Source: an uncultured Chitinophagales bacterium
GTDB lineage: Bacteria; Bacteroidota; Bacteroidia; Chitinophagales; CAZNGA01
Reading direction: 5' to 3'
DNA length: 64,000 bases
NCBI GenBank assembly: GCA_964572485.1
Contig: CAZNGA010000003.1
Coordinates: 9,591-73,590 of the forward strand
Shown in pieces: positions 19,393-53,432 of this stretch. The translations under genes and the position numbers were made by a program. The notes under the pieces were generated by a model, which ran no database searches, was not told the origin of the DNA, and worked only from the letters and a program-made list of their open reading frames with translations. The first letter of the stretch is position 1; the number at the start of each line of letters is the position of its first letter.

Positions 19393-19650
19393 TTTTTATA
19401 ATTTTAATAGGCTCACAATTATCAAAAATTAATAATATAGTTCATTTTTCCCTACTCATTTACCTAGCAGGTAATATGCTAATGTAATACAATGCAATAG
19501 TAAAATAAAAAGATAATTCGTATTCAGTCACTTACAATTAGTATTTGGTGCATTTTACAAGGAATTTGGTATATAGGATTCCTTAACAAAACATGAGTAT
19601 TTACTAAATAATCGTTCGAATAGCATCATTCAAGTAGAGGTATCAGGGCA

Positions 19651-20397: not shown

Positions 20398-20522
20398 GGA
20401 AAGGTTTTTATTTGAAGTTAACTTACTCAATGGACCCTACTAATTTATACATTATTCTCATACAATAGAAATCGAATTCGTATTTGGTGTACAGCAATTA
20501 GCAAACGGTACGTTACACATAG

Positions 20523-20581
20523 GATTTGGTGATTTGGGATCGGGTGATTGGAAGATTTGTGGATTGGAGATTTGGAGATTG
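20523..20581. repeat. eight head-to-tail 7-8 nt GATTKGR units
   Basis: The tract reads GATTTGGT GATTTGG GATCGGGT GATTGGAA GATTTGTG GATTGGA GATTTGGA GATTG. It lies in the divergent spacer between the LytTR response regulator and the CRTAC1-like gene. Confidence 0.75.
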
Positions 20582-26872: not shown

Positions 26873-26965
26873 AGTAATTACGTATGATTACCCTTAAAAG
26901 ACATATTTATTTGATAGAGATGGCTTATTAGCGGATAAGTGATCTAAAAATGGTGTTGAATGGGC
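26873..26965. promoter_or_regulatory. three-box upstream module of A1 (degenerate box1, 21/39 spacing)
   Basis: TTACGTATG core ending at 26886, a 21-nt gap, TATTTGAT (26908-26915), a 39-nt gap, then GTTGAATGGGC (26955-26965). Confidence 0.45.
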
Positions 26966-27171
26966 TATTTTAACCGATTAATGAGGTAAAATCGGTGATT
27001 CACAGCTATATAGGTTTTCTGCTCAATTTCGCAGGGTAAGATCAGTGTCTTTTAACCTTAAGCTTAAAGAAGTCGCAAAGTTCATTGGTTTAATCAATAG
27101 GGGTCTATAATGAATCATATCTGGATGCTAAGGTACTTAATCGACTGTGGCAATTACATCAGTTATAAAAA

Positions 27172-31225: not shown

Positions 31226-31318
31226 CTTACATACGTAAGGGACCAGTAACAATTCGATTTAATTTGACCAAACCTATGTACATCAAGTTAAGTGAACTTT
31301 ATTTAGGGATGAATGGAC
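31226..31318. promoter_or_regulatory. three-box upstream module of A2 (21/39 spacing)
   Basis: CTTACATACGTAAG (31226-31239), a 21-nt gap, AATTTGAC (31261-31268), a 39-nt gap, then GATGAATGGAC (31308-31318). Confidence 0.55.
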
Positions 31319-31564
31319 AAAAAAGTAAGATTAAACGGCCGAAACCTATACGATTGGCTATACCAAGACTTTACAATCCAACCTGGATATTCTGCTATAT
31401 CTATTAAGTCGATTCAAAGGGCTTAGATCAGCCACAATAAGTACCATTTACATAGGTAAGGATGATCTAGTTTTCCAATGATCTATCGATGCATGGATAC
31501 AATATAAGATCAGGTGTGACTTGGGAAATAAGTTGTGTTAGAGGGTAGTCATTGAAAGGAACAT

Positions 31565-35397: not shown

Positions 35398-35469
35398 CTT
35401 ACATACGCGAACATTCCGGATAAATCCGAGTAAATTTGACGGAAGTGGTGGTAATTTCGATGAATGGAC
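35398..35469. promoter_or_regulatory. three-box upstream module of A3 (21/18 spacing)
   Basis: CTTACATACGCGAA (35398-35411, right half degenerate), a 21-nt gap, AATTTGAC (35433-35440), an 18-nt gap, then GATGAATGGAC (35459-35469). TAAATTTG at 35431-35438 matches TAnnTTTG on the plus strand. Confidence 0.55.
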
Positions 35470-35767
35470 CTATTCCTATGGTTAATAGCCTATAAGGTTG
35501 GATAAGGCACTTAAGCTCAATGACTGCAAGGTATTAAGGCAGTACATCATCACTTCAATACTCTTATACATAATAGGTAAGCACAGGGGAAGGGCCTACT
35601 AATGATCACTTCGGATCTGATACACAAGATAAATATCGCGGACTAAATTAGAAGTAGGTGTATTTGTAATATTTGAAACTTAGGGTAAGTACAATACAAA
35701 AAAATGCCCACATCGATTCACCTTCAGGTAGGATGCAGACATTTAAAGTTTTAATATGCTTTGTAGG

Positions 35768-38296: not shown

Positions 38297-38447
38297 AATT
38301 GTTGCTTTGTTATTATAGTTTACGTTTTGACCAAATCCTTGTTTCGAATTGGCCTCCTGACTTATTAGTCGGTTTACTATCGCTGATAAATGGTCGTTAT
38401 TCATAAATAAATGGTTGGTATTATATAGTTACTATACTATCAACTCT

Positions 38448-38519
38448 CTTACTTACGTAAGTTTGTCTGCATAATCTGAGAAATTTTGACCGATGTAATG
38501 GAATATTCGACGAATGGAC
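38448..38519. promoter_or_regulatory. three-box upstream module of B1 (21/18 spacing)
   Basis: CTTACTTACGTAAG (38448-38461, containing the perfect 12-bp palindrome ACTTACGTAAGT), a 21-nt gap, ATTTTGAC (38483-38490), an 18-nt gap, then GACGAATGGAC (38509-38519). Confidence 0.6.
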
Positions 38520-38658
38520 CTATTATGGTGTTGAATAACTTTGTAGAATAGATAAGCTGCCTAATAGACAATAGAACTTTGAGTATGCAAATACATTTAT
38601 AGGGTCAGGAACCATTGGGGTATATTATCAAGGGGTAAAGTTACTGCCAACAATACAA

Positions 38659-39024: not shown

Positions 39025-39639
39025 TCAAAATAGTTGTATTTCCCAAAATAACCAGCCAAACATTAGAAACCTCAATATACGCACGCTGGCAAATGCCATA
39101 TATCTATTTAATGGATAATCCATAGAACCTGATAAGATGCTGATAATAGAAAAAGGGATGGGTGTAAATGCTGCTATAGCGATATACATGCCTCCCCAGG
39201 ACAAGATATTCTTCTTGTATTTATTACTGAATCCGTTCAAGTACTTTGCTAAATATTTAATTTGGCATAACTTTTTTCCAAGCAACAATGAGACGATCCC
39301 ACCAAAATAGGAAAGAAATGCTAAAAGGAACAAAAAGATCACAGGGTGAGAACATTGCAAGGACCAAAGGATAAAAAAGTCTTGAGGTAATATGCCAAGA
39401 AAGGACTCTGAAATAAAGAAAACACCAAATACGATTGGAGGGAGCACTGCCAAATGAATGCTGGTTTCAAAATTAGTAGTTGAAAAAAAGTATTTAGAGG
39501 TTGCAAGAGCTCCTACTATCAAAATAATATATAGGAACCCATGAAGTATATTTCGTGATAAGATCTTGTACTCGATATTATTTAATGGAAGGCAAATGGC
39601 TCTTATCTTTGTAATTGAATTCTTGCTAAATTGCTTCAT
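39025..39639 (-). CDS. small polytopic membrane protein, YqaA/DedA (VTT-domain)-like
   Basis: 204 aa, about 5 TM segments. The LPQDFF..., YFGG....LG and AAFTPIPFSIISILSG patterns resemble the YqaA/DedA family. It starts 33 nt downstream of the paralog C stop on the same strand. Confidence 0.6.
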   Translation of the reverse strand: MKQFSKNSITKIRAICLPLNNIEYKILSRNILHGFLYIILIVGALATSKYFFSTTNFETSIHLAVLPPIVFGVFFISESFLGILPQDFFILWSLQCSHPVIFLFLLAFLSYFGGIVSLLLGKKLCQIKYLAKYLNGFSNKYKKNILSWGGMYIAIAAFTPIPFSIISILSGSMDYPLNRYMAFASVRILRFLMFGWLFWEIQLF

Positions 39640-39672: not shown

Positions 39673-41730
39673 TCAATTACGAGCATAATTACTTGATCCA
39701 TTGCCACCTGATATGACCAACTTCTGCTGGCATATTTCGTTCTTACTGCTCGCGACTATCAGATATACCCCCGGAGCAAGGTTGTTCATTAGATCGATCC
39801 CTGTGAGTACGCCATTACTTTCAGTGATCATCACTTTAGAATATACCTGCTGTCCCGTATGGTTATAAAGAACCACCAACACTTCTTCATTAGCTTTCTT
39901 ATCGCTTATTTCCAGAGTTAATTCCTGTCCAGTTAATAGAGGATTAGGATAGATCTTCATGGTTGAAGTTGTATTAGTGATCTGTACAGCCACAGGATCA
40001 AAATATTCAAACCTCTGATCGTAGTCGGTTTGTTTGAGTCTATAGTAGCTGGTACCAGATAGTGGCGTATTGTCAATATAAGAATAGTTGTTTTCTGTGT
40101 ATGATGTCCCCATTCCTTCCACTTCCGCAATTACTTCAAAGTTGATCCCATCATTAGACCTTTCTACAGTATAATAGTCATTATTGATCTCAACTGACGA
40201 GGTCCAATTGATCTCAACTGATCTTCCAACAACTTCTGCACCCATATCCAACAATTCGATAGGGAGTGCCATTCCATTCCCCGCAGAGAAGTCATGGTTT
40301 GAAGGTATCTCTGATATACCACTGCTACTGGTAAGTGTATTGGTGACTGTATTTACATTATTGTATTGAGTCCAGGCAACCCCATTCCATCTGGCTGTAT
40401 TCAGGGTGGCCTCAGTGCCTGTAACGTCTACTTCATTATAGATATAGCTCACATCGTAATCAATAGAACCAATACCACTTGCATCTATGGTCCAATATCT
40501 TGTGATCAGATCACCCGGATCTAAGTTGGGATGGAGACCATCGGTTATATTACAAGTTATAGTAGCTGTACCCCCTGAACTGCTATTTTTTGTAAAGGTA
40601 AATGGTGAATATTCGTTCACATCTCCTACTAAAAAGTCAATTGAGCTATTGTTGTTAAATAGCTTTACCATTTTCCCACCATTCGAAGAGGTAACATCTA
40701 CATAACTATTGATACTGCCACCAGCTGTAGTACCTGATGTTGCAATGATCAGGTCATCTGCGCCAACTTTGATCACCCCATCAGACATGGTAAGTGTACC
40801 ATTTACTGTGACATCTCCCTCTAAGGTTAATTGTGGAGAAGTACCATAGCTATTGTTTATTGTAACATTCTCGTATGTAAAACCATCTGTGCCTGCTCCC
40901 TCATCTTCTCCGATCACTTGAGCTATAGAGGCATCAAATGTGATCGTTGAATTATCCTGCATATCAAATAATCCGTAGTTATTAGGAGTTGCCTGTCGTA
41001 TAACATCACCGGCAAGATTGATGCGTGTGTCATCCAGCACTTTAAAAACAACTCTGCTTTGAGCACTCGCAGTTATATAGATATCTCCAGACACATCTAA
41101 AAATGAGTTATCCTCAAATTTGCCATACACATCTTGTGAGCCCCCGCTGTAATCCATGGTGAGGTCTCCATCTACAATAAGTTGGCCATCATCTTTTACT
41201 GACAGTGATATTCTCTTTGTCCCGCCATCACTGTCAAGGGTCATATCCCCATTTACTCTCATTATTGAATTGTCATTTACCTTTATTTTTATCACATCTG
41301 AACCGCCATTTCTATAAGCCAGGAAATCACCTTGTACGGTAAGAATACCGCCACCCATTCCACCGGAATTTTCCTCCAGGTGCAAATGTGCTTCCCTCGA
41401 GCCGCCATTTGCATCTAAAAGCATATCTCCGGCTACGGTTAATGAATAGCCATCTTCAATTTCTAATTTACCATCATTGCTTCCTGAACCAAGAAGTTGA
41501 ACATATGCACAAGCCATATTTGCGTTATTAACTTCGATCTCATATCCCTGGATATAAGCGCTATCGCCTGCAACTGGGTAAGCGCCGGCTGCAGCCCCTC
41601 CAAAACCGGTTGTTGACCAGTTATTGTTGTCATCCCAGATACCCCCACTAATAGAATAGTAAATAGTAGCACCTGCGAAATTCATCGCTGCAAAAAAAGT
41701 AAGTCCGATTAATAAAATAAAGCGTTTCAT
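39673..41730 (-). CDS. T9SS type-A CTD protein, tandem paralog C
   Basis: The ORF extends to 41814. The ATG at 41730 gives MKRFILLIGLTFFAAMNFAGA. Opener SGGIWDDNNNWSTTGFGGAAAGAYPVAGD. Core SYVDV..FLVGD..YSPF..LHPN..ITRYW. LPIELLDM domain. CTD KIYPNPL...GVYLIV. Confidence 0.85.
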   Translation of the reverse strand: MKRFILLIGLTFFAAMNFAGATIYYSISGGIWDDNNNWSTTGFGGAAAGAYPVAGDSAYIQGYEIEVNNANMACAYVQLLGSGSNDGKLEIEDGYSLTVAGDMLLDANGGSREAHLHLEENSGGMGGGILTVQGDFLAYRNGGSDVIKIKVNDNSIMRVNGDMTLDSDGGTKRISLSVKDDGQLIVDGDLTMDYSGGSQDVYGKFEDNSFLDVSGDIYITASAQSRVVFKVLDDTRINLAGDVIRQATPNNYGLFDMQDNSTITFDASIAQVIGEDEGAGTDGFTYENVTINNSYGTSPQLTLEGDVTVNGTLTMSDGVIKVGADDLIIATSGTTAGGSINSYVDVTSSNGGKMVKLFNNNSSIDFLVGDVNEYSPFTFTKNSSSGGTATITCNITDGLHPNLDPGDLITRYWTIDASGIGSIDYDVSYIYNEVDVTGTEATLNTARWNGVAWTQYNNVNTVTNTLTSSSGISEIPSNHDFSAGNGMALPIELLDMGAEVVGRSVEINWTSSVEINNDYYTVERSNDGINFEVIAEVEGMGTSYTENNYSYIDNTPLSGTSYYRLKQTDYDQRFEYFDPVAVQITNTTSTMKIYPNPLLTGQELTLEISDKKANEEVLVVLYNHTGQQVYSKVMITESNGVLTGIDLMNNLAPGVYLIVASSKNEICQQKLVISGGNGSSNYARN

Positions 41731-41776
41731 GATTAATGATTTAGTTGTGTTCAAATCGTCATTTTTTCTCATAATA

Positions 41777-41790
41777 GTTACCCGTGTAAG
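41777..41790. promoter_or_regulatory. box1 palindrome upstream of paralog C (proximal copy)
   Basis: GTTAC-CCGT-GTAAG, 46 nt upstream of the ATG at 41730. A degenerate copy, CTGTC-ATAA-GTAAG, lies at 41859-41872. Confidence 0.45.
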
Positions 41791-41915
41791 TTTTTGTTTG
41801 TTTTCTGATAGCAATATATATCTTATCGCTTCTAAATAAAAGCCATTTGCTTCAGGACACTGTCATAAGTAAGATTTACAGTTATTTCTGGTAATCAATG
41901 AAGAAATGAAGGGTT

Positions 41916-41929
41916 ACTTACAGGTGTAA
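41916..41929. promoter_or_regulatory. box1 palindrome upstream of paralog C (distal copy)
   Basis: CTTAC-AGGT-GTAAG with perfect half-sites. Confidence 0.45.
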
Positions 41930-41993
41930 GAAATAACAGCTTTTGGTTTATTCTCTTAATAGATCATTACAGCAAAATGAATAGAATTGCAGT

Positions 41994-42111: not shown

Positions 42112-44604
42112 TTATTTTATTATATCGCCAGAGATGATCAATCTCTGTTGATAGATGCTTTTATTACTGCTACCAATCACAAAATATACACCTGGTATCA
42201 ACTTATTATTTAAATCTATGGCAGTAGTAATTTCATCACCTTGAATCAATAGCACCTTCGAATAGACCTCTCTCCCATATTGATCTACAAGCACTACCAT
42301 CACTTCTTCATCAGGGGTAAATCCTTGCAGAATAACCTGCAATGACTGGCTTGGCAACACAGGATTTGGGTATAACTTAATAGTAGGTTTATCAACACTT
42401 ACAAAGTGTACAGCTATCGGTGCAAAATATTCAAATTGATGATCCACATCTGTTTGCTTCAATCTATAGTAGGAAGTCCCTGTAATTGGCTCAGAGTCAA
42501 CATATTTATAATTAGTGCTTTGATAGGTAGTCCCCTGGCCATTAATTGTTGATATAACTTCATAATCAAAACCATCATTCGATCTTTCAATTGTAAAATA
42601 ATCATTATTGATTTCAACAGCTGTACTCCAATATAATACAACCCTGTCTGTCTCTACATCTGCCCTAAAACTCAGCAATTCTATAGGTAAAGCACCTCCA
42701 CTGCCGCCTGTGAAATCATGGTTACTGGGAATAGTAGTGATCCCTATAGAATTGGAGAGTGTATTGATCGCAGGATTTACAGCATTATATGCACTCCATG
42801 AACTACCATTCCATTTGGCAGCTTTCAGGTTGGTTTCTGTGCCTACAATATCTTCGTCTAAATACACTGCCTTGTAACCATATTTAATAGCTGAAAAGCC
42901 CCCACTATTCATTCTCCAAAACCTTGTAATGTGGTCCCCTTCTGCCATATTTGCATGTTTTGCATCAGTCACCTTTATTGAAATATTATCACCCCCACCA
43001 AAAGAAGTTCCCCCTTGGAGCTTAAACCAAAATGGAGAAAATTCATCATTATCGCCAACCGGAAAGTCAAATGGCGTAGTGATCCCATTAAAATTCTTGG
43101 TCATTACTCCTTCATTATCTGCCTGAACATAACTGGAAGCACCTCCGTTAGATATTGTGGCATCAACATCCATTGTCAGATCATTAGCCCCCAGGACAAT
43201 ATCTCCACTAGAAAGGTTAAGGGTTCTGGTCACTGTAATATCAGCACTCAATGAAACATCACCACTACTATTATCGACGGTAAGATCATAAAATTCTTCA
43301 CTATTGCCATTTATTGCTTGAGGAGATGAGCCATCAAATGTCACTTCACCATTTCTCTCAATAAATGTACCATTGTCTGTCCAGTTTCCTGCGAGATCTA
43401 TAGTATAATCACTTCCATTCCCTACATCCAATGCAGCATTGGCAGTAATCAACAGATCTCCATTTATATCTACATTATCAGTAAGTGTTTTGGTAGCCCC
43501 TCCTGATAGGGTTACGTTACCATAGGATTCATTATTTGAGGGATCAGGGACATTCTGGGCACTGGTAGCAGCAAAATTTACAGTACTGTTGACATGGATA
43601 CTATGAGATGCACTAGTTGAAGTTTGTAGCATTCCACCTGTACCATCTGTGGTGGTAGTAGAATATGTTGTAGTGCCAGCCATCTCGAAGAACTTTCCAT
43701 TTGCCAATTCAATACTGTAACCGCCAGAATTCAGCTGGCCGGTCATTACACGAATATCATCTAATACTGTATTCGTCTCATCTGATTGAGAGATATCTGC
43801 ATCTAAAGTTACTCCTGCAGTATTATTGATCCTCACCTCTCCATAGGTCCATTCATTTGTAACAGCACCCCCATAATTGATCATTGAGAACACTTGAGCT
43901 GATGTGCCATTGAAGTTTATAGTTGTAGTCTCTTCACAATCAAGGTCCCCATAATTACCTGATGCACTTCTGTCAAAATTACCTGCCAGATTCATTAATC
44001 CATTGTCATTCATATTGATCTTTAAACTTCCTTTCTCAGCACCTTCATATAATACATCCCCCAGTATTGTGCATACTCCATCATCTTCTAATTTAAGTTC
44101 TGCTTCCTTATCACCATTTGCCCAGAGGGATACATTGCCGGTTATGGTTAATGATCCATCTTCTTTTACTTTTACCTTTGCTTCATCTTGATCATCATAA
44201 GCCATAAGGTTCAAATTGGAGCCAATTGACATTGTTCCAGGGAATCCACTCGAACCGGATATCTCAATTTCAACTTTATTTTTATTACTTTGGGTACTTA
44301 ATAAAGTACCATATATAACTGTCAGGTCTCCATTATCCTCAATGAGCAATTTAGAGTCATCCCCTGATCCGGAGCGCATATAGATACTATCACACTGCTC
44401 AATAGAATTTACGGTTACTTCTTCATCTTCAATAACCACAATATCTCCAACGCCGGGTACAGAAGCTCCGGATGAACCACCTGAAGTAGTTGACCAGGTA
44501 CTTGTATTATCCCAATCACCTGAATTTACCGAGTAGCGAGTCCCTGCCTGCAAACAAAAGTAGGTCATCATTATCAGACATACAGTAGTAAATAAAGTTT
44601 TCAT
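42112..44604 (-). CDS. T9SS type-A CTD protein, tandem paralog B2
   Basis: 830 aa with signal peptide MKTLFTTVCLIMMTYFCLQA. Opener SGDWDNTSTWSTTSGGSSGASVPGVGD. Core YVQADNEG..FPVGD..FSPF..KHAN..ITRFW. LPIELLSF domain. CTD KLYPNPV...GVYFVIG. Confidence 0.9.
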   Translation of the reverse strand: MKTLFTTVCLIMMTYFCLQAGTRYSVNSGDWDNTSTWSTTSGGSSGASVPGVGDIVVIEDEEVTVNSIEQCDSIYMRSGSGDDSKLLIEDNGDLTVIYGTLLSTQSNKNKVEIEISGSSGFPGTMSIGSNLNLMAYDDQDEAKVKVKEDGSLTITGNVSLWANGDKEAELKLEDDGVCTILGDVLYEGAEKGSLKINMNDNGLMNLAGNFDRSASGNYGDLDCEETTTINFNGTSAQVFSMINYGGAVTNEWTYGEVRINNTAGVTLDADISQSDETNTVLDDIRVMTGQLNSGGYSIELANGKFFEMAGTTTYSTTTTDGTGGMLQTSTSASHSIHVNSTVNFAATSAQNVPDPSNNESYGNVTLSGGATKTLTDNVDINGDLLITANAALDVGNGSDYTIDLAGNWTDNGTFIERNGEVTFDGSSPQAINGNSEEFYDLTVDNSSGDVSLSADITVTRTLNLSSGDIVLGANDLTMDVDATISNGGASSYVQADNEGVMTKNFNGITTPFDFPVGDNDEFSPFWFKLQGGTSFGGGDNISIKVTDAKHANMAEGDHITRFWRMNSGGFSAIKYGYKAVYLDEDIVGTETNLKAAKWNGSSWSAYNAVNPAINTLSNSIGITTIPSNHDFTGGSGGALPIELLSFRADVETDRVVLYWSTAVEINNDYFTIERSNDGFDYEVISTINGQGTTYQSTNYKYVDSEPITGTSYYRLKQTDVDHQFEYFAPIAVHFVSVDKPTIKLYPNPVLPSQSLQVILQGFTPDEEVMVVLVDQYGREVYSKVLLIQGDEITTAIDLNNKLIPGVYFVIGSSNKSIYQQRLIISGDIIK

Positions 44605-44651: not shown

Positions 44652-44714
44652 CAAATATATATCTTGACATGAGGTGATACAAACCATGTTAAAATGGTTG
44701 CTTTCCCGTGTAAG
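44652..44714 (-). promoter_or_regulatory. candidate B2 promoter: box1 plus TAnnTTTG box
   Basis: Box1 CTTTC-CCGT-GTAAG (44701-44714). On the minus strand, TATATTTG (44659-44652) lies 41 nt below it and about 48 nt upstream of the ATG at 44604. A TTTG sits 20 nt upstream of the -7 box. Confidence 0.5.
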
Positions 44715-44816
44715 TTTATTTCAATTAAATAGGGAATTCAATCCTTTTTTTCGACCAATGGATATAATACATTTAAAGGGCGGATCTATTGGCTTACCTG
44801 ACCATGGATATAATAT

Positions 44817-44891: not shown

Positions 44892-47402
44892 TTAATTTGA
44901 AGAAGAATTACTGGAGCTGGAAATAATCAACCTTTTTTTATGTATCGTTCTTTCATCGCTTCCAATAACAAAGTAAAGTCCGGGTGGAATTTTACCATAA
45001 AGGTCAATAGCTGTAAGCACCTGGCTACTCTCCATCATTATCACTTTTGAAAAAACCTCTCTGCCAAATTGATCCATCAGCAAGACAACCACTTCTTTAT
45101 ATGGTTCAAATCCTTCTAAGACCACATTCAAAGATTGGTTGGGCAGCACAGGGTTTGGGTACAATTCAATGGATGTATTATTTGAATATTCTAATACCAC
45201 TGTTACCGGTGCAAAATATTCGAAATGATGATCATAATCAGCTTGCTTCAGCCTGTAATATGAAGTCCCTTGGTAGGGTGAAACATCTACATATTTGTAG
45301 TCAGTACTTTGATATGTGGTTCCTTGCCCTTCAATAGTAACCAAGATCTCGAAATCAATACCATCATTAGAGCGCTCTATAGTAAAATAGTCATTATTGA
45401 TCTCAACAGCAGTTGACCAGGTGAGTAGCACTTCAGAGCCAACAACTTCAGCATTAAATCCTAATAACTCTATTGGCAGTATTGCACCTGCACCACCTCC
45501 GGTAAATCCATCGTTGGCAGGAATTTCACTGATCCCTGTAGTATTGGACAGGGTATTTGTTGAGGCAGAAACCGAATTGTATGATGTCCAGGCACTTCCA
45601 TCCCATCTTATCCCTAAGAGGTTGCTCTCGGAGCCTACAATATCTGCATCCACATACACTGATTTATAGGTAAAGTTAATTGCCGAGAAACCACCACTGT
45701 TTACATTCCATACTCTGGTGATATGAGCAGTACCTGGGTTAATCTGAACATGCTTGGAGTCGATTATATTTACAGAGATAAAATCACTTCCACCAAATGT
45801 GGTTCCACCGATCAACTCTACCCAAAAAGGAGAATATTCATTATTATCCCCTACCGGATAATTGAATGGATTATTGAGTGCATCCATATTTTTGATCATT
45901 ACACCTGCATTATCTGCTTGCACATAACTTGAAGCACTTTCATTGGACGATGTGGCATTGACGTCCATAGTCATATCATTTGACCCTAATACGATATCCC
46001 CAAGAGTAAGATCGAGGGTACGAGAAACTGTGATATCTGTATTCAATGATACATCACCACTTGAATTATTGATGGTCAGGTCATAATAGGTTTCATTAAC
46101 GCCGTTGATTGTTTGAGCTGAAGATCCATCAAATGTTACTTTTCCATTTCGCTCATTATAGGTTCCATTATCTGTCCAGTTTCCTGCCAGATCTATATCA
46201 TAATCATTTCCGTTATCTGCATCCAGGGTAGAAGTTGCAGTAATCAAAAGGTCGCCATTCACATCAATATTATCTACAAGTGTTTTGGTAGCCCCACCTG
46301 ACATGGTTACATTACCATAGGGTTCACTATTTGAGGGATCAGGGACATTTTGCGCACTGGTGGCTGCAAAATTCACCATACTATTTACATGGATATCATG
46401 AGAGGCAGAAGTAGAGGTCTCCAACATCCCACCAGTAGCATCTGTGGTAGTGGTATAATAAGTTGTTGCACTTGCAATCTCAAAAACCTTTCCATTTCCC
46501 AGTTCTATACTATATCCTCCTGAGTTCATCTGACCGCTCAGGATACGAATATCATCCAAGACTGTATTATTAACATCTGATTGAGAGATATCTGCATCTA
46601 AAGTTACTCCTGCAGTATTATTGATCCGTACTTCCCCATATGTCCATACATCGGTAGCCGATCCACCGTAGTCAATCATCGAAAGAGTTTGTGCAGATGA
46701 GCCATTGTAATTTACGACAGTGTTCAATTCACAATCCAACTCCCCATAATTTCCAGAGGCACTCCTGTCAAAATTGCCTGCAATGTTCAATACTGCGTTG
46801 TCCTTAACTCTCAATCTTGGCTTACCTAGCTCAGCCCCCTCAAATATAATATCTCCCACTACAATAGCTGTAGCATCATTTTCTACATTAAATTCAGCTT
46901 TTTTATCGCCATCGGTCCATAAAAACACATCCCCGCTTACGGTCAATGAACCATCATCAATTACATTAACTTCTGCATCATCTTCTCCATCAAAACCCCT
47001 TATGATCAAATCTCCTCCAATAGACATCGTCCCCGGAGTTCCGCTTGTGCCAAATATCTCAAGAGTTGCTTTATTACCATTATTTTCTGTTGTGAGAAAC
47101 ACACCATTCGTAACGGTAAGATCACCATCATCATCAACTAATAGTTTACTATCATTACCAGAGCCGGAAATAATATAAATACTATCACATTGTTCCACAG
47201 AATTTACAGTTACTGTATATTCGTCTTCAATTATTACCACATCACCACTACCGGGAACAGAAGCCCCTGAAGATCCTCCGGAACTTGTTGCCCAGGTGTT
47301 CGTATTATCCCAATCACCATTGTTGACGGAGTAACGATTAGCTGCATCAACATTGTACTCTATAACACTGATGATGAATAGTGTTGTAAATAAATACTTC
47401 AT
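44892..47402 (-). CDS. T9SS type-A CTD protein, tandem paralog B3
   Basis: 836 aa with signal peptide MKYLFTTLFIISVIEYNVDA. Opener NGDWDNTNTWATSSGGSSGASVPGSGD. An 88-aa stretch is identical to B1. LPIELLGF domain. CTD ELYPNPV...GLYFVIG. Confidence 0.9.
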   Translation of the reverse strand: MKYLFTTLFIISVIEYNVDAANRYSVNNGDWDNTNTWATSSGGSSGASVPGSGDVVIIEDEYTVTVNSVEQCDSIYIISGSGNDSKLLVDDDGDLTVTNGVFLTTENNGNKATLEIFGTSGTPGTMSIGGDLIIRGFDGEDDAEVNVIDDGSLTVSGDVFLWTDGDKKAEFNVENDATAIVVGDIIFEGAELGKPRLRVKDNAVLNIAGNFDRSASGNYGELDCELNTVVNYNGSSAQTLSMIDYGGSATDVWTYGEVRINNTAGVTLDADISQSDVNNTVLDDIRILSGQMNSGGYSIELGNGKVFEIASATTYYTTTTDATGGMLETSTSASHDIHVNSMVNFAATSAQNVPDPSNSEPYGNVTMSGGATKTLVDNIDVNGDLLITATSTLDADNGNDYDIDLAGNWTDNGTYNERNGKVTFDGSSAQTINGVNETYYDLTINNSSGDVSLNTDITVSRTLDLTLGDIVLGSNDMTMDVNATSSNESASSYVQADNAGVMIKNMDALNNPFNYPVGDNNEYSPFWVELIGGTTFGGSDFISVNIIDSKHVQINPGTAHITRVWNVNSGGFSAINFTYKSVYVDADIVGSESNLLGIRWDGSAWTSYNSVSASTNTLSNTTGISEIPANDGFTGGGAGAILPIELLGFNAEVVGSEVLLTWSTAVEINNDYFTIERSNDGIDFEILVTIEGQGTTYQSTDYKYVDVSPYQGTSYYRLKQADYDHHFEYFAPVTVVLEYSNNTSIELYPNPVLPNQSLNVVLEGFEPYKEVVVLLMDQFGREVFSKVIMMESSQVLTAIDLYGKIPPGLYFVIGSDERTIHKKRLIISSSSNSSSN

Positions 47403-47469: not shown

Positions 47470-47532
47470 CAAAAATAAAACATTAGTCAAGTGAAAGCAA
47501 TCAGATTTGCACTACAATCTTTCGCATGTAAG
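47470..47532 (-). promoter_or_regulatory. candidate B3 promoter: box1 plus TAnnTTTG box
   Basis: Box1 CTTTC-GCAT-GTAAG (47519-47532). On the minus strand, TATTTTTG (47477-47470) lies 41 nt below it, the same spacing as at B2. A TTG sits 20 nt upstream of the -7 box. Confidence 0.5.
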
Positions 47533-47656
47533 ATTTAAGTAGTTTCTGGTCGATATTATTAAGATAAATGCACAATCCTGTTGAGCAAAGAACCTCAATA
47601 ACCTTTTATCATGGTTATTACTTAAAATAATAGAAATAAAATAGGATTGATTTGGC

Positions 47657-48019
47657 TTACAATAAGTTAAGTCGTTGCATTAAGCTTTTCCTATAAGATT
47701 TGCTGATCGGAATGGGCTTTTTATCCAATATAAGGATCTTTCCCTGTATGGCAGCGATCTTATCAATACGGATGATGTATGATCTGTGTACCCTGATAAA
47801 ATCTTCAGCAGGGAGCTTACCTTCAATACCTTTCATGGTAGAATGAACGGTGTAATTTTCATGCTCAGTTTGAATGATCACATAATCACCATACGCTTTG
47901 ATCCACAGGATATCTTCAGGATAGATCTTTAAAAGGCGTGCAGCCGCTTTCAGAAATATGTGGTTGCTCTGAAAAGTGGTTTGTTTACTAGGCTGATTCA
48001 AGTTGTTGCTTTGGAACAT
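47657..48019 (-). CDS. stand-alone LytTR-domain DNA-binding protein (no receiver domain), copy 1
   Basis: 120 aa. DILWIKAYGDYVIIQTEHENYTVHSTMKGIEGKLPAEDFIRVHRSYIIRIDKI is a complete LytTR domain preceded by only about 30 aa. Confidence 0.85.
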   Translation of the reverse strand: MFQSNNLNQPSKQTTFQSNHIFLKAAARLLKIYPEDILWIKAYGDYVIIQTEHENYTVHSTMKGIEGKLPAEDFIRVHRSYIIRIDKIAAIQGKILILDKKPIPISKSYRKSLMQRLNLL

Positions 48020-48155: not shown

Positions 48156-48524
48156 CTAATCCATTCTTTTCATTAGTTCTTTCCTGAAGGAATCACTTAC
48201 CGGTATCAGCTTCTTTCCTACCTCCAGAGTCTTATTATTTATCGCATTTATTTTATCAATGGCCACAATATATGATCTGTGTACTCTTATAAATTTAGCC
48301 TCAGGAAGCATCTCTTCAATTTCCTTCATTGTTGCATGTACTGTATGTCTATCTTGAAAAGTTTTAATACTGACGTATGAGCCAAAGGCCTCCACACAAA
48401 GGATAGCATCAAGCAGTATCTTGAGGATGGGCGCCTTCTCTTTCACGAAAAGTGGTTTACTTGGTGGTACTCTCTTTCTCATATTGCTATCTTGGTTTTC
48501 AAAGCCGTCAATATTTCTGATCAT
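48156..48524 (-). CDS. stand-alone LytTR-domain DNA-binding protein, copy 2
   Basis: 122 aa. AILCVEAFGSYVSIKTFQDRHTVHATMKEIEEMLPEAKFIRVHRSYIVAIDKI. Confidence 0.85.
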   Translation of the reverse strand: MIRNIDGFENQDSNMRKRVPPSKPLFVKEKAPILKILLDAILCVEAFGSYVSIKTFQDRHTVHATMKEIEEMLPEAKFIRVHRSYIVAIDKINAINNKTLEVGKKLIPVSDSFRKELMKRMD

Positions 48525-48556: not shown

Positions 48557-48628
48557 AAACTATACGTAAGGTTCCAGGTAAAAGGTGATTAATTTTGATG
48601 GATGCATTGATTAAAAGGACGAATGGGT
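48557..48628. promoter_or_regulatory. three-box module upstream of LytTR copy 2 (21/18 spacing, same as A3 and B1)
   Basis: ATACGTAAG ends at 48570 (the left half-site is degenerate), a 21-nt gap, ATTTTGAT (48592-48599), an 18-nt gap, then GACGAATGGGT (48618-48628). TAATTTTG at 48590-48597 matches TAnnTTTG on the plus strand. Confidence 0.55.
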
Positions 48629-48733
48629 CAATTATTCGGATTAACGAACCATTTAGGTGGTTGACTATCCATTAATTGTGTTGAATTGATGATTCAATGG
48701 ATACGAGTATAGGTACATTCCTTCTTTTTGAAT

Positions 48734-48764
48734 AAAAAAACCCCCGATACGCATGTACCGGGGG
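48734..48764 (-). terminator. orphan intrinsic terminator (minus strand) inside an ORF-free spacer
   Basis: CCCCCG-12 nt loop-CGGGGG, preceded on the plus strand by A7 (U7 after the stem on the minus strand). It lies 450 nt below the nearest upstream minus-strand stop codon. Confidence 0.65.
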
Positions 48765-49116
48765 TCTCTCTGTGATACTAAAACTAAATTACAATTACTA
48801 AAACTTAAAAATTATGAATATGTCATTGGTTGCTTGATTCTATACATTAAACGAAAAAAAGCAGTAATTGGTTTCATAAATTCGATGAATTGACCTGTTT
48901 ACAGTTAAAATAAAGCACATTATGCCCCCTGCTCAAACAGGGAATATTGATTCAAGTTGATTGATTATGTTGGGAGTATTGGGATTCCTGCTTGTCGACA
49001 GACAGGATTTTATTGATAATTTTTATTGCTCCTGATATTTAAATTATTCGCCTAACCAGCTAATTAATGATCACGATGCACTTTGGCATCGGGATTAATT
49101 CAACTACTAATTTTTA

Positions 49117-49153
49117 TTAAAAAGAAAACCCCTACCATCTAATTGGTAAGGGT
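49117..49153 (-). terminator. intrinsic terminator of LytTR copy 3
   Basis: ACCCCTACCA-tctaat-TGGTAAGGGT (9 of 10 bp paired), followed on the minus strand by TTTTCTTTTT. It lies about 60 nt past the stop at 49213. Confidence 0.6.
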
Positions 49154-49212
49154 CTCTTCTGATAATCAAAACCTAAGAAAGAGGATAGATCTTTAAAGGT
49201 TTTCTATGAAAA

Positions 49213-49557
49213 CTAAAGCAGATTTAAATTTTGCATCAAATTCTCCTTGTACGAATTACTAACAGGGATATATTTTGAGGCAACTTTTAGTGTTTTACCG
49301 TTTACAGAGTTGATCTTATCCAGGGCAACAATAAATGATCTATGTACGCGAATGAAAAATTCGGGGATCAGTTTCTTTTCAATGCCCTTCATTGTTGTGT
49401 GAACAGTATATTTTCTTTCAGGTGTATGGATGATAACATAGTTGCCTAGTGCTTCGATCCATAAAATATCTTCCACATTTATTCTATGAAAATGGGTACT
49501 TGTTTTCACAAAAAAGTTCGCATTTGGCTTCTGCGATATGGTCTGTTTGTTCTTCAT
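49213..49557 (-). CDS. stand-alone LytTR-domain DNA-binding protein, copy 3
   Basis: 114 aa. DILWIEALGNYVIIHTPERKYTVHTTMKGIEKKLIPEFFIRVHRSFIVALDKI. It starts 32 nt downstream of the 165-aa CTD protein gene on the same strand. Confidence 0.85.
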   Translation of the reverse strand: MKNKQTISQKPNANFFVKTSTHFHRINVEDILWIEALGNYVIIHTPERKYTVHTTMKGIEKKLIPEFFIRVHRSFIVALDKINSVNGKTLKVASKYIPVSNSYKENLMQNLNLL

Positions 49558-49589: not shown

Positions 49590-50087
49590 TTATTTTACGA
49601 TCAATTGTTGTCTTTTTATGCTATCAAAGCTTTTCACTACTATATAATAGGTCCCTGATTCTAATTCAAATCCATAGTTTATATTTTCCACTGTCCCATC
49701 GTTATTGGTAATGAAATCTTTGGAAAATATCACCTTTCCATTTTGATCAAGAAAATTAACCGTGATCTCCTTGACACCTAGCACATTTAGTTGGATGCTT
49801 ATGTTACTGGAAGTCTCAATAGGGTTTGGGAAAATATTAAATGAAAATGCCGGATAAGGTTCAAAACTTTTGACTGTGTTGCTTCGTTCTACTTTTTTAT
49901 TATCCGGTACACTGTAAGGCATACTTTCCACAACCGTAACTGTGGTTATGTTATTATGTTCATCACTCTTTACTTCAGTCGTTTCACTTTGAGCATAAAT
50001 AAAACAGGATATAAGTAAACTAATAGTCAACATGGCCAATCCTTTTGAAGCAAAAGGCGAAAAACGAATATGTTGTATCCTGTTCAT
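49590..50087 (-). CDS. minimal T9SS substrate: signal peptide + short linker + type-A CTD only
   Basis: 165 aa. Signal LAMLTISLLISCFIYAQS, an about 50-aa linker, then the CTD FNIFPNPIETSSNISIQLN...FLDQNGKVIFSKDF...GTYYIVV...RQQLIVK. Confidence 0.8.
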   Translation of the reverse strand: MNRIQHIRFSPFASKGLAMLTISLLISCFIYAQSETTEVKSDEHNNITTVTVVESMPYSVPDNKKVERSNTVKSFEPYPAFSFNIFPNPIETSSNISIQLNVLGVKEITVNFLDQNGKVIFSKDFITNNDGTVENINYGFELESGTYYIVVKSFDSIKRQQLIVK

Positions 50088-50160: not shown

Positions 50161-50174
50161 GTTACACATGTAAG
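50161..50174. promoter_or_regulatory. box1 palindrome upstream of the 165-aa CTD gene / LytTR copy 3 pair
   Basis: GTTAC-ACAT-GTAAG followed by ATTTTGAGG, 73 nt upstream of the ATG at 50087. A near -7 box, GTAATTTG, lies on the minus strand at 50120-50113 (40-nt gap). Confidence 0.45.
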
Positions 50175-50242
50175 ATTTTGAGGGAAAAGGGGCAATCAAA
50201 TGATTCGAAGAAAGGTATTGAAAAGAAAATGTTGGATACAAA

Positions 50243-52936
50243 TTAATGTGGCATGAAGACGATCTTTCTTGTTGTTTTATGATCCCCTGCTAAAAGGGAC
50301 ACAAAATAGATCCCCCTGGCTATAAAAGGTTCAGGCTGCCAAGTGATCATATGAAATCCAGCACCTTTGGTAAATGGTGTAAAATCCTTAACTAACCTTC
50401 CTGAGATATCGTAGATCTGAATACCAATCTCTCTCTCCTCATGAAGTGCAATTTCAAAGGTTACACCATTTGAAAAGCTTGGATTTGGATATATGCTAAC
50501 CGCCAAAGAAGAAGGTAATACCTCCGGGTCCGGCTCAAAATAACCTAACGAATCGATACTTGATGTCTTCCACAATCCACCGGAAACACTACCAGCCCAT
50601 ACCGTATTGCCTGTAGCATCATTTGGGTCAACCATAATAGTACGGGTTCTGCCTCCAATATTTGAAGGGCCTCTTTCTTCCCAAATGATACTATTATCAC
50701 TCTGAATCCTACCTACATACAAACCCCTTCCATGTGTTGCTGCAAGTATTGAGTGATCTGACTTTCTTATCCTCAACATATCTGTCCTTACATAAGCCAA
50801 GCCCTGATTTGCAGGCAGCCAGATAGTACTATCACCATCCAAATTATTAGTATAGAATACGCCTATCTCTGTGGCAATATAACATACCCCGGCCTTTAAG
50901 GGATGGAGCAGTGCCCATCTAACCGGAATATCAGGCAGATCACCCTCTACAGAATGCCAGGTAGGTGATGGATCTGCCGCATCCTTACTCTCAAATATCG
51001 ACGGGGCTCCGTAGTTTGAGTATACCACAATTACGTGCCCTCCATCTTGCGGATCAACATAAATGCACGATGCGAAAAAATCCGGCTCTCCCATATTAGC
51101 TTGAGGAAGCCTGTCTGCAGGATCTGTATTTTCAGGTCTGTAGGATGATGTTGTCAAATGGGCATCAACTACTCTAAATACTTTTCCGGATGAGCTTTGT
51201 CGTCCAAAGTATAATATATTTGCAGGATTTTGACTAATCCCTATCGCTGATACCGTTCCCCATGCTTTTGTAGCCTGTTCCCAATCGGAATCATCAGCTG
51301 CTGAAGCATTCTTGAGACGCCATATCCCATTATTACTTGCCTGGTAGATTATATCTGGATCAATCGGATCCATTTCCATGGGATTGATAAATAATGTATT
51401 TCCTCCACTGCTGCTTGAGCCACCCTTCAAATACGGATTTGTGATCGCATCATATCCACCTGATCCTCCATTTACAAACCTATACATCCGTAAATATTGT
51501 GTTGTGGTATACATGATATTACCGTCGTTATAATTAATGGCACAAAAAGCGCCGTCAGCACCGGATAATTTTTGGAAATCACTTTTCCCAGAACTAATGG
51601 CTATTCCCGATCCATTATCCTGCGTCCCTCCAATCACAATGTGACTACCTGCATCAGGATGAATGGCCCCGGCATAATACTGTGTAACATTGTAGGTGGC
51701 ATTTCGATTTGTGATCATAGGTGTGTCATCTCTAAAGTTGCTGCATTTCCATATACCACCATCATTACCAAAAAAGACGGTATCTGAATTCAAAAAAGTG
51801 ACCTCATGTTGATCCACATGCACATACCCCGCTGAATCGGATTTACTATGAGTGATCTTTCGCCAATTAATGCCCCCATCTATACTTCTCCAAAAATGCA
51901 ACCCACCAGCCACCAGAACATCTTCGTTGTTCGGATCCACCTTCAAGATCAGATCATACCACCCCTGCTTTTTTGAGAATTTGGTACTATCACCCCCTGG
52001 AATATTTACCTTGAACCATGTACTTCCTTTATCCTCGGTTTTGTAAAATCCCATGATATAATAATTCTGAGACACATCACTTATTGCAGTGGCATAAGCC
52101 ACATTTTCATTGGAAGGCGCTGTGGCAAGTTCAATCCGATAAATATTATTGGCCGGGAATCCGTTGGTTTGTTCAACCCATGTACCTGTATCCCCAGTTG
52201 CTGAGAAGTAAATCCCATCGGTATTAAACATACCTATGGTTGCAAAGATCTCTCCAGATGCAGTATATTCTATGTCTGCTATCCGATCATGTACAGCTCC
52301 ATTTCCCGCTCCCAGAACCTGCTCCCATGTGAGGCCATTATCCTTTGAACGCATTAGCCCACCATCCCTTGTTGCCACATAGATATCACCTGTTGTTGGG
52401 TGTACAAACATATCCTGACACTGAAAGAAAATGCTACTGTCTGTAGCAGGAAGCTGGCTCCAAGTATCACCTCCATCCGCCGACTTCCACACACCGGCCC
52501 CTCTCACAGCATCTGCATTGAACCACCCTTCTCCAGTACAGAAATAGAAATTATTGGTATTATTCGGATCATAAACTAGCCGGGTAATACTTAAGGATGG
52601 GAAAAAATCATTGATGGTTGACCATCTTATATCCTTTTTCATGGGAGATGAATGACCGCTTAATGTTAATTTACCAGCAGCTTCCAATTTCTTTAGCGCT
52701 TTATAAACTGCTCCCTTGGGTGCTTCACCTGTATAAGGGTTGGCTACTCTGTCCAATTCAAACTGAGCTAATTCACCAGGATACTCAGCAATTGGCCTAT
52801 CTGCTTCCTGACCAATTATATTGCTCAATGGCCTATCATATAGAAATAATGCCAATAATAGGAATATGGCGACCATTAAAGATATGTTTATTAGGGTTCC
52901 TGTTCTCACGCTGCTTGATTTCAATCTAAGTAGCAA
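50243..52936 (-). CDS. BNR/Asp-box beta-propeller protein (sortilin/VPS10- or GH74-like) with type-A T9SS CTD
   Basis: Asp-boxes SADGGDTWSQ, SKDNGLTWEQ, TEDKGSTWFK and SIDGGINWRK. CTD SIYPNPSFSNGVTFEI...GIYFVSL...RKIVF. Confidence 0.85.
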   Translation of the reverse strand: MLLRLKSSSVRTGTLINISLMVAIFLLLALFLYDRPLSNIIGQEADRPIAEYPGELAQFELDRVANPYTGEAPKGAVYKALKKLEAAGKLTLSGHSSPMKKDIRWSTINDFFPSLSITRLVYDPNNTNNFYFCTGEGWFNADAVRGAGVWKSADGGDTWSQLPATDSSIFFQCQDMFVHPTTGDIYVATRDGGLMRSKDNGLTWEQVLGAGNGAVHDRIADIEYTASGEIFATIGMFNTDGIYFSATGDTGTWVEQTNGFPANNIYRIELATAPSNENVAYATAISDVSQNYYIMGFYKTEDKGSTWFKVNIPGGDSTKFSKKQGWYDLILKVDPNNEDVLVAGGLHFWRSIDGGINWRKITHSKSDSAGYVHVDQHEVTFLNSDTVFFGNDGGIWKCSNFRDDTPMITNRNATYNVTQYYAGAIHPDAGSHIVIGGTQDNGSGIAISSGKSDFQKLSGADGAFCAINYNDGNIMYTTTQYLRMYRFVNGGSGGYDAITNPYLKGGSSSSGGNTLFINPMEMDPIDPDIIYQASNNGIWRLKNASAADDSDWEQATKAWGTVSAIGISQNPANILYFGRQSSSGKVFRVVDAHLTTSSYRPENTDPADRLPQANMGEPDFFASCIYVDPQDGGHVIVVYSNYGAPSIFESKDAADPSPTWHSVEGDLPDIPVRWALLHPLKAGVCYIATEIGVFYTNNLDGDSTIWLPANQGLAYVRTDMLRIRKSDHSILAATHGRGLYVGRIQSDNSIIWEERGPSNIGGRTRTIMVDPNDATGNTVWAGSVSGGLWKTSSIDSLGYFEPDPEVLPSSLAVSIYPNPSFSNGVTFEIALHEEREIGIQIYDISGRLVKDFTPFTKGAGFHMITWQPEPFIARGIYFVSLLAGDHKTTRKIVFMPH

Positions 52937-53042: not shown

Positions 53043-53285
53043 TCAGAAGTGGTTATAACAATTGACGATCCCTTTTCCAATTCTATAGAAAATATTGGCA
53101 ACGAAATATATAGGGGCCAGGATGATAGCCAATCCATCGATAATCCTGAATCCAATTCTAAAAATTAAGTATGCCATCATAGTAATTACTTTACGGAAAT
53201 TTTGGAGAGAAGTTACTACAAATATTAGCAGAATCTTACATGCAAATTCCGATATACCTATAGTATTTATAGTGCAAAATTCCAT
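53043..53285 (-). CDS. possible small two-TM membrane protein (uncertain)
   Basis: The 80-aa ORF has two hydrophobic segments, but a competing 67-aa plus-strand ORF overlaps it. No family motif. Confidence 0.25.
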   Translation of the reverse strand: MEFCTINTIGISEFACKILLIFVVTSLQNFRKVITMMAYLIFRIGFRIIDGLAIILAPIYFVANIFYRIGKGIVNCYNHF

Positions 53286-53432
53286 AATTGATAGTTAACA
53301 TGTAATAGGAAGAAATGCCCATTTTTCTTACGTAGATATACGTATCCCACAGAAAATTATGTGTGAATTGTGTTGCGTGAGAGTCATTTACAACAACAAC
53401 AGAAAGGCAAAACAGGAGTGATCAAAGAGACC

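Follow-up and report, generated by a model that had tools for sequence, protein, structure and literature searches.

A 64,000-nt stretch of DNA from an uncultured Chitinophagales bacterium (positions 9,591 to 73,590 of contig CAZNGA010000003.1, assembly GCA_964572485.1; hereafter the window) carries a short, precisely spaced sequence module upstream of five genes: four type IX secretion system (T9SS) cargo genes and one gene for a stand-alone LytTR-domain protein, LytTR copy 2. The contig is of Bacteroidota type and low in GC (~38%), and all genes concerned lie on the minus strand; coordinates are window positions, and features are on the minus strand unless stated otherwise. LytTR-domain regulators are very abundant in Bacteroidota. 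To our knowledge, the binding site or regulon is known for almost no Bacteroidota LytTR regulator, and the regulation of T9SS cargo and adhesin paralogs is essentially unknown.

Pfam searches of the open reading frames (ORFs) of the window revealed a tandem array of T9SS cargo genes with Por_Secre_tail domains. The four that carry the module are A1 (23048-26833), A2 (27258-31181) and A3 (31565-35374), each with PKD_6, G8 and Por_Secre_tail domains, and B1 (35768-38404; Por_Secre_tail), for which alignment with D836 places the probable true start at 38296. An earlier, sequence-only reading of the locus called these genes four paralogs; the term suits A1-A3, whose proteins are 43-53% identical, but B1 shares only the C-terminal third (~400 aa, 38-40% identity). 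The nearest paralogs of B1 are D836 (836 aa, 44892-47402) and D830 (830 aa, 42112-44604), which are 67% and 58% identical to it. The array also includes a 713-aa gene (39673-41814), a 165-aa gene (49590-50087) whose promoter carries AAAATCTTACATGTGTAAC, and an 897-aa Sortilin/BNR-like gene (50243-52936). The module appears to mark a sub-regulon of the cargo array, since only four of its at least eight T9SS cargo genes carry it. For B1, A2 and the 713-aa gene, the longest ORF probably extends too far at the 5′ end: signal-peptide-like sequence and paralog alignments begin 28-44 codons in, from which leaders of 100-190 nt would follow.

A 30-kb part of the window encodes four LytTR-domain proteins. 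LytTR copy 2 (48156-48524) is a 122-aa protein with no REC domain (PF04397, E=1.2e-19) and, being itself under the module, is a candidate binder. A second stand-alone protein of 120 aa (47657-48019) is encoded 136 nt downstream of it and is 52% identical, and a third of 114 aa (49213-49557) lies 32 nt downstream of the 165-aa cargo gene. These three share 49-54% mutual identity and match PF04397 with E=1e-19 to 2e-23, and the PDB LytTR-domain chain 3d6w was matched with E=2e-4. The fourth is a 259-aa REC+LytTR response regulator (19651-20430; PF04397 E=1.7e-15), and directly downstream of its gene is that of a 1694-aa CHU_C adhesin (type B CTD; 14308-19392). No ORF of at least 25 aa on the gene strand between 47403 and 49212 resembles a membrane protein adjoining the LytTR genes; the nearest multi-pass membrane ORF is at 39025-39639, 8 kb away. 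A strong predicted intrinsic terminator (48733-48770, z=-5.75) lies directly upstream of the LytTR copy 2 module, which therefore probably heads its own transcription unit.

An independently assembled JGI metagenome contig (L001, sample 3300002231) matches 10.3 kb of the window collinearly at 99.8% identity. None of the 19 strain differences falls in the module, a number too small to inform. The 897-aa gene is split in L001 into ORFs of 290 and 565 aa by two single-base indels (52042-52048), which reflects either an assembly error or strain-level frameshift variation.

Anatomy of the module

Read along the gene strand, the module consists of box3 (YCCATTCRTC), a gap of 18 or 39 nt, box2 (RTCAAAWT), a gap of 21 nt, and box1 (CTTACGTA), with box1 located 28-60 nt before the first ATG. 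The coordinates and gaps given in the sequence-only reading were reproduced exactly on the minus strand: box1 and box2 are 21 nt apart in all five copies, and box2 and box3 are 18 nt apart in A3, B1 and LytTR copy 2 and 39 nt apart in A1 and A2. Its consensus describes the copies generally, with the exception of A1 box3 (CCCATTCAAC), A1 box1 (CATACGTA) and A3 box1 (TTCGCGTA), which deviate from it. The partition into three separate boxes was not borne out. Box3 is one unit of an array phased at 21 nt, the last unit of which enters box2, and box1 belongs to another motif.

The array emerges from an ungapped alignment anchored on box2, in which 10-mers ending in C occur at every 21st position, in registers n=3 to n=0. 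Each promoter has at least four such imperfect 10-bp units in direct orientation, with the consensus yyCATTCRTC and the weaker forms ..CACTTAWC and ..GTTTAATC. The period is exactly 21 bp from start to start in all five copies, made up of a 9-10-bp unit and an 11-12-bp spacer; as 21 bp corresponds to two helical turns, all units would lie on the same face of the DNA. Box3 is the strongest unit, at n=1 in A3, B1 and LytTR copy 2 and at n=2 in A1 and A2, and the 39-nt gap is 18 + 21 because the strong unit is one 21-nt register further out in the latter two. The RTC of box2 forms the end of the last unit (n=0), and from the end of the array it is 26 nt to box1 and 54-90 nt to the first ATG.

The phasing is well supported statistically. 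When a position weight matrix (PWM) built solely from the strong units of the other copies was applied to the 10 phased positions that are not box3, the summed score was +3.4 against a null of -115.6 (sd 17.5), and 0 of 20,000 random sets reached the observed sum. Shifting the frame to either side, in steps from 1 to 10 nt, gave a score of -56.6 or less in all 20 cases, and all ten of the phased sites have C at position 10 (P=6e-8). CCATTCRTC has five matches on both strands of the 64 kb, four of them inside modules, and the composite CCATTCRTC-N18-RTCAAAWT-N25-CGTA has three exact matches against 0.01 expected from shuffles. We also scanned with profiles of the aligned copies, leaving out one copy at a time (nhmmer; search space of ~190 kb, comprising both strands of the window and the loci fetched for comparison); the left-out copy was always the best match outside the training set. 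A profile of A1-A3 alone retrieves B1 (4e-8) and LytTR copy 2 (4e-5).

The five copies, with leave-one-out E-values, are as follows. The LytTR copy 2 module, upstream of the 122-aa gene, spans 48557-48669 (E=2e-8), with box1 CTTACGTA at 48563-48570, box2 ATCAAAAT at 48592-48599, and 10-mers TGCATCCATC (n=0, 48597-48606), CCCATTCGTC (n=1, box3, 48618-48627), TTCGTTAATC (n=2, 48639-48648) and GATAGTCAAC (n=3, 48660-48669). That of B1 (38448-38560, E=6e-11) has a dyad, CTTACGTAAGTAAG, at 38448-38461 that contains box1, followed outwards by box2 GTCAAAAT (38483-38490) and the 10-mers TCCATTCGTC (n=1, box3, 38509-38518), GTTATTCAAC (n=2, 38530-38539) and GCAGCTTATC (n=3, 38551-38560). The A3 module (35398-35510, E=3e-12), whose box1 is only 28 nt from the ATG, combines the box1 variant TTCGCGTA (35404-35411) and box2 GTCAAATT (35433-35440) with TCCATTCATC (n=1, box3, 35459-35468), GCTATTAACC (n=2, 35480-35489) and GTGCCTTATC (n=3, 35501-35510). 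In A2 (31226-31338, E=2e-6), box1 is again contained in a dyad, CTTACGTATGTAAG (31226-31239), box2 GTCAAATT is at 31261-31268, and a weak unit TTCACTTAAC at n=1 (31287-31296) precedes the strong box3 unit TCCATTCATC at n=2 (31308-31317) and CCGTTTAATC at n=3 (31329-31338). The A1 copy (26874-26985) is the most degenerate (E=0.16, still the best non-training match) and contains box1 CATACGTA (26879-26886), box2 ATCAAATA (26908-26915), ATCACTTATC (n=1, 26934-26943), CCCATTCAAC (n=2, box3, 26955-26964) and CTCATTAATC (n=3, 26976-26985). No further copy was found in the window or in loci L004-L013 with a profile of all seven aligned modules (E >0.4), and a scan of the window for phased PWM pairs outside the modules gave nothing convincing.

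Conservation is concentrated in the motifs. Mean pairwise identity in the ungapped alignment is 0.62-0.80 in boxes and units and falls to 0.32-0.44 in the segments between them, compared with 0.26 in random sequence, so that the equal identity throughout which a recently duplicated spacer would have is not seen. Recent duplication does not explain the module, because identity among the A1-A3 proteins is just 43-53%; the LytTR gene is not related to them. As far as the sequence allows, these observations support the proposal that the module is a composite cis-regulatory element, and no remnant of duplication. Its internal spacing is invariant, while the start codon lies anywhere between 28 nt (A3) and ~150 nt (B1, with the start at 38296) away, a pattern that fits a promoter or operator and no translational signal. 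Rfam covariance models gave no family at gathering score in the 64-kb window, and no known riboswitch or leader was recognised there.

Box1 is the left arm of a dyad, CTTAC-N4-GWAAG, which is a separate and more widespread motif. The window has eight strand-hits against 0.2 expected, all intergenic, and five cargo-array promoters contain it: those of A2 and B1, and three in which boxes 2 and 3 are absent. The latter are the promoters of the 713-aa gene (CTTACACCTGTAAG, 41917-41930), of D830 (CTTACACGGGAAAG, 44701-44714) and of D836 (CTTACATGCGAAAG, 47519-47532). At both D830 and D836 a canonical Bacteroidota -7 box lies 41 nt downstream of the dyad (TATATTTG, 44652-44659, and TATTTTTG, 47470-47477), and D830 also has a box3-like sequence, CCATTGGTC (44753-44761), 38 nt upstream of it. 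Half-dyads are present at A3, at LytTR copy 2 and in the promoter of the 165-aa gene (CTTACATGTGTAAC), and, reversed, upstream of the 897-aa gene. The three-box module is thus best described as a fixed-geometry pairing of two putative cis-elements, one of which is common to most promoters of the array. The TTACGTAA palindrome was also looked for in the literature on Bacteroidetes, with no result.

An 11-mer, AATCTTACATG, occurs in three identical copies (~0.1 expected), all intergenic, at 47525-47535, 50167-50177 and, on the plus strand, 53232-53242; the copies at 50167 and 53232 are in inverted orientation and flank the 897-aa gene. The 500-nt intergenic region that holds the copy at 53232-53242 also contains TACGTA-N4-TACGTAAG (53327-53344) and GTAATTACTAT, a sequence in common with the A1 box1 region.

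Known LytTR operators and related loci

LytTR-family operators consist of 9-11-nt imperfect direct repeats with 11-13-nt spacers, and their exact spacing is critical (PMC4847170, PMC4064291). The module matches this description, with at least two imperfect direct repeats of 9-11 nt, spacers of 11-13 nt and strict spacing. The promoters of AgrA, ComE, PlnC/D, VirR and YpdB likewise use two 9-11-nt repeats with 11-13-nt spacers, exact spacing being critical; these regulators bind cooperatively and have autoregulated operons, but they are controlled by phosphorylation, whereas three of the four candidate regulators here have no receiver domain. YpdB binds the direct repeat GGCATTTCAT (PMC4847170), a unit that resembles CCATTCATC in the module and GTATTTCATC at a foreign locus described below (L009).

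The closest parallel in organization is provided by the LytTR Regulatory Systems (LRS), such as HdrRM and BrsRM (Zou et al. 2018, PMC6193735), whose stand-alone regulators positively autoregulate through direct repeats in their own promoters (PMC6193735). Both cases involve small soluble LytTR-only regulators; LRS repeats are imperfect 9-bp sequences 12 bp apart, giving a 21-bp period, located just upstream of the promoter, and are present both in the promoter of the regulator itself (positive feedback) and in target promoters (PMC6193735). Unit sequences are also alike. Among the weak units, ATCACTTAT and TTCACTTAA agree with the BrsR repeat ACCACTTAT at 8/9 and with the HdrR repeat ACCACTTAA at 7/9 positions, and the unit CCCATTCAA matches the Staphylococcus aureus LRS repeat ACCATTCAA at 8/9 (repeats from PMC6193735). 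The placement of LytTR copy 2 in the same regulon as the array, advanced in the sequence-only reading, agrees with the full module upstream of its gene and fits LytTR autoregulation of this kind (PMC6193735). There are nevertheless clear differences: none of the three stand-alone LytTR genes has a co-transcribed membrane inhibitor gene beside it, the promoters have at least four phased units where LRS have two, the promoter type is not sigma-70, and the targets are T9SS cargo genes in Bacteroidota rather than bacteriocin and competence genes. Because there is no adjacent membrane inhibitor gene, the system is not an LRS in the strict sense: the two-gene operon of Zou et al. 2018 is absent, and repeats in the regulator's own promoter are, to judge from their sequence, present. 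The 'LRS-like' operons of Bacteroides (PMC6193735), with 11-bp repeats, 11-bp spacers and membrane-anchored regulators, are unlike the present system.

The strongest units resemble binding sites of Pseudomonas aeruginosa AlgR, also a LytTR-domain protein. The box3 variants CCATTCGTC and CCATTCATC are one base off the AlgR sites CCGTTCGTC and CCGTTCATC, which are known from footprinting or ChIP-seq (PMC4064291, PMC4787818); compared with CCGTTCGTC, box3 agrees at 8/9 positions, the exception being G3, for which every copy has A, and CCGTTGGTC is a further footprinted AlgR sequence of this kind. AlgR differs in being a REC-LytTR response regulator of a proteobacterium, and in that its sites are often single or irregular and up to hundreds of base pairs from the start site, whereas the units here are strictly phased and promoter-proximal. 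We rejected membership of an AlgR regulon, and regard the similarity as a resemblance: the match is 8/9 only, the host is a member of the Bacteroidota, and the window has no AlgZ-like kinase.

Further occurrences of the module were sought in 185,579 species genomes and a metagenome contig collection, neither of which appears to contain the window's own genome. A strict pattern (CCATTCRTC-N19-TCAAA-N24-TTACGTA) gave three matches, which lie inside ORFs or in the wrong context and are about as many as composition predicts. The protein LytTR copy 2 has hardly any close relatives: a word-indexed search gave two proteins, an exhaustive search gave no representative below E=1e-30 and 9,115 below 1e-3, and among the best 150 of these 32 are stand-alone-sized (<=150 aa) and most others are REC-LytTR proteins of ~230 aa. 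The only relative of LytTR copy 2 found in the contexts of homologues (L004, 56% identity) is in a context like that of LytTR copy 1 and has no module. Among the loci of A- and B-family homologues, L012, L014 and L015 have no module, and L006, L007 and L008 have a different conserved leader. Upstream of two B-family homologues, at L006 ~985-1050 and L007 ~4370-4440, there is a common stretch, TTCATTGAATCYGGATRCCTGA...GGAATCTGGATAAAACTTTT. It could represent another leader or regulatory element, or belong to a start that was called wrongly; L007 and the window share a JGI sample.

Around homologues of B1 and A3, weaker and partial echoes occur at four loci. The best foreign match of every profile (E 0.006-0.05) is L010 (Logan SRR29093009), upstream of a T9SS FG-GAP gene, where GCCCTTCATC occupies register n=3 (a gap of 18+42), phased CTGTTTAATC, TGCGCTTGAC and CTGCTTGGTC run into GTCAAATA, and CCGTA follows 20 nt on; repeats rich in ATCAAAYAT lie upstream of this module, at 280-345. 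At L009 a REC-LytTR gene is located directly upstream of a T9SS adhesin gene, and the intergenic region has weakly phased GTTTTCAATC, GCTGTTTATC and GTATTTCATC+AAAGA at 21-nt spacing. Upstream of two A-family homologues (P0126, P0129), at L011 9828-9890 and L013 8394-8450, TTACGTA occurs three times with spacings of 14 and 16 nt, and GTCAAAAT and CGTAAT follow these copies, representing box1 and box2 words in a different arrangement. The neighbours at L011 are a REC+GerE regulator and a FG-GAP T9SS gene. Together these echoes weakly suggest a vocabulary shared among related Bacteroidota.

Interpretation and alternatives

With slightly better than even confidence, we read the module as controlling a promoter that depends on activation by LytTR-domain regulators, because its phased units have the defining geometry of LytTR operators and a LytTR-like unit sequence. 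From the anatomy, statistics and domain content described above, we infer binding, the direction of regulation, the choice of paralog and the position of the transcription start as follows. One or more of the four LytTR proteins of the window would bind the phased units cooperatively, on the same face of the DNA and over ~85 bp, and would bring RNA polymerase to a weak core promoter, located at box1 or a little downstream of it, that has no canonical -7 box (TAnnTTTG). Since the same module heads the 122-aa LytTR gene, this would generate positive feedback or a feed-forward arrangement, so that four T9SS adhesin-like genes would be co-expressed in a switch-like manner. The dyad would act as a separate input, either for a dimeric factor or as an element close to the start site, that is common to the rest of the cargo array.

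The core promoter context is consistent with activation. The canonical Bacteroidota -7 box, TAnnTTTG, precedes the ATG of housekeeping genes in the window by 33-43 nt and is also present at D830 and D836, but four of the five module promoters lack it on the gene strand; between box2 and the ATG it is absent in A1, A3 and B1, A2 has TAGGTTTG only upstream of box2, and LytTR copy 2 has a near-match, TAGTTTTA, right after box1. The module promoters are thus not canonical Bacteroidota sigma-A promoters, in which TAnnTTTG is expected on the gene strand ~20-45 nt before the start, although the long spacer between box2 and box1 (~21 nt) resembles that between the -33 TTTG and the -7 TAnnTTTG. The missing -7 box is as expected of activator-dependent promoters. 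A scan for the sigma-70 consensus remained at shuffle level (53 matches against 48.7).

Several points weigh against a LytTR-served promoter. Chance may account for the resemblance to the AlgR 9-mer, since binding specificity is not conserved among LytTR proteins (PMC4847170), and known LytTR promoters use a single pair of repeats, so that the array here, with at least four, is twice as long. Outside this genome the strict module was not found (two species-genome matches and one metagenome match, all chance-like), and nhmmer does not detect the similarity at L009. At the module promoters no -33/-7 or -35/-10 pair could be recognised at the canonical 4-11 bp downstream of a repeat pair, and read on the plus strand box2 is a perfect -7 match in LytTR copy 2 (TAATTTTG) and A3 (TAAATTTG). 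Finally, part of the similarity among A1-A3 could be inherited.

One rather unlikely alternative is that the module is the core promoter of an alternative sigma factor, with box2 as a -33/-35-like and box1 as a -7/-10-like element, the phased units providing curvature or an UP-like sequence with no LytTR protein involved. The layout of box2-N21-box1 does resemble the Bacteroidota -33/N19-21/-7 arrangement (TGTA-19 bp-TATCTTTG; PMC6193735 Table 3), TACGTAWG fits TAnnTTTG at 4-5 of its 6 specified positions in A2, B1 and LytTR copy 2, the gene strand has no canonical -7 box, and the 28 nt between A3 box1 and its ATG imply a transcription start at or near box1. However, no sigma or anti-sigma gene was found in the window; sigma-54 (GG-N10-GC) and ECF (AAC-N16/17-CGT) readings of box1 and the spacer, made by eye, fit at most 1-2 of the five copies and were rejected; the dyads of D830 and D836, 41 nt upstream of a canonical -7 box, imply an upstream site and no -10 element; and the 21-nt phased LytTR-like units are left unexplained. 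Such a core promoter and LytTR activation may also coexist.

We consider it very unlikely that box2 is instead a Bacteroidota -7 box on the plus strand, driving a divergent or antisense transcript, with the gene-strand arrangement secondary. Besides the two perfect matches, there is one mismatch each in B1 (AAATTTTG), A2 (TTAATTTG) and A1 (TTTATTTG), and the housekeeping genes of the window do use TAnnTTTG. Downstream on the plus strand, though, there is no ORF or Rfam family, no -33 TTG is found at the right distance, and the modules have a constant orientation 28-60 nt from the start of a minus-strand ORF. If TCAAA flanks the last LytTR unit, the TTTG would be kept in any case.

A similarly slight chance attaches to simple inheritance, in which promoters were duplicated with their genes, one was captured by a LytTR gene, and the boxes have no function now. 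A1-A3 are tandem paralogs, A2 and A3 have 15 identical bases just past box1, and spacer identity is somewhat above random. At 43-53% protein identity, though, neutral intergenic DNA should be randomised, and what identity there is concentrates in the boxes. D836 and D830 are the closest paralogs of B1, yet they have no boxes 2 and 3, and an unrelated LytTR gene has them. The shift of the strong unit by exactly one 21-nt register is also no product of neutral decay.

Site-specific recombination, with the dyad or boxes as sites of an invertible promoter or shufflon that varies which adhesin paralog is expressed, is scarcely credible and was rejected: CTTAC-N4-GTAAG is built like a recombinase core site, the 11-mer AATCTTACATG flanks the 897-aa cargo gene in both orientations, and the B1 box2 region (TCGGTCAAAATTTC, 38480-38493) has a perfect 14-nt inverted copy at 37646-37659, but no window ORF has a recombinase domain, inverted repeats touching modules are at chance level (3 of 33 pairs against ~2 expected by our estimate), the independent JGI contig is collinear over its 10.3 kb, and all five modules are in direct orientation. 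The inverted copy of TCGGTCAAAATTTC falls within the coding sequence of B1, at a distance of 820 nt, and is compatible with chance (~0.3 expected by our estimate).

If the module is a LytTR-served promoter, it would work like the LytTR direct-repeat promoters with autoregulation that are already known, and would be no surprise in principle. What is new is the context – T9SS adhesin-like cargo in an uncultured member of the Bacteroidota, with three sensor-less LytTR paralogs – together with the length of the array (at least four phased units), the register shift of the strongest unit, and the fixed coupling to a second, dyad element. A full-text literature search for LytTR together with T9SS yielded genome descriptions only and no mechanistic link. 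The locus offers a testable cis-code, comprising unit sequence, 21-bp phasing, register shift and dyad, along with four candidate regulators, and a feedback loop could explain coordinated or switch-like surface remodelling.

A bolder interpretation, which we think improbable, is that the array of at least four units and the three sensor-less LytTR paralogs together make up a self-amplifying, register-coded switch. Each adhesin paralog would then have its firing threshold and order set by where the best unit lies (n=1, 2 or 3) and by how strong it is, and the CTTAC dyad would gate the whole array. This would give a bistable or variegated display of surface adhesins without DNA inversion, and a LytTR 'enhancer' architecture and T9SS-cargo logic so far undescribed.

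Further repeats in the window

Additional repeats of similar form lie near the LytTR genes and in the B1 leader. Downstream of the B1 module, a perfect direct repeat, ACCATTTAT-N12-ACCATTTAT (38386-38415), spans the first ATG of the ORF; ACCATTTAT agrees with the BrsR-type unit ACCACTTAT at 8/9 positions, and on its 3′ side, at 38318-38332, is a fused GGTCAAAACGTAAAC, with a box2-like and a box1-like part. This repeat may act as a second promoter under LytTR control, or as a roadblock site. Between the REC-LytTR gene and the CHU_C adhesin gene there is a direct repeat, ACCAAATTC-N12-ACCAAATAC (19541-19570), with an 8/9 match and a 21-nt period, which is possibly an operator of this response regulator. 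On the other side of the REC-LytTR gene, the divergent intergenic region that separates it from a FG-GAP T9SS gene (20640-22949) contains ~7.5 tandem copies of GATTTGG(A) at 20523-20580.

A unit of ~380 nt with no ORF (48733-49118) extends from the LytTR1 terminator (~49119-49155) to the terminator at 48733-48770. It has a box3-like 16-mer, AGGTCAATTCATCGAA (48881-48896), with one mismatch relative to the 16-mer of A3 and B1, a -7-like TAATTTTT, and, just ahead of the terminator, a perfect 10-bp direct repeat, AGTTTTAGTA, in two copies (48776-48805). The unit may code for a small RNA that is under the same regulator.

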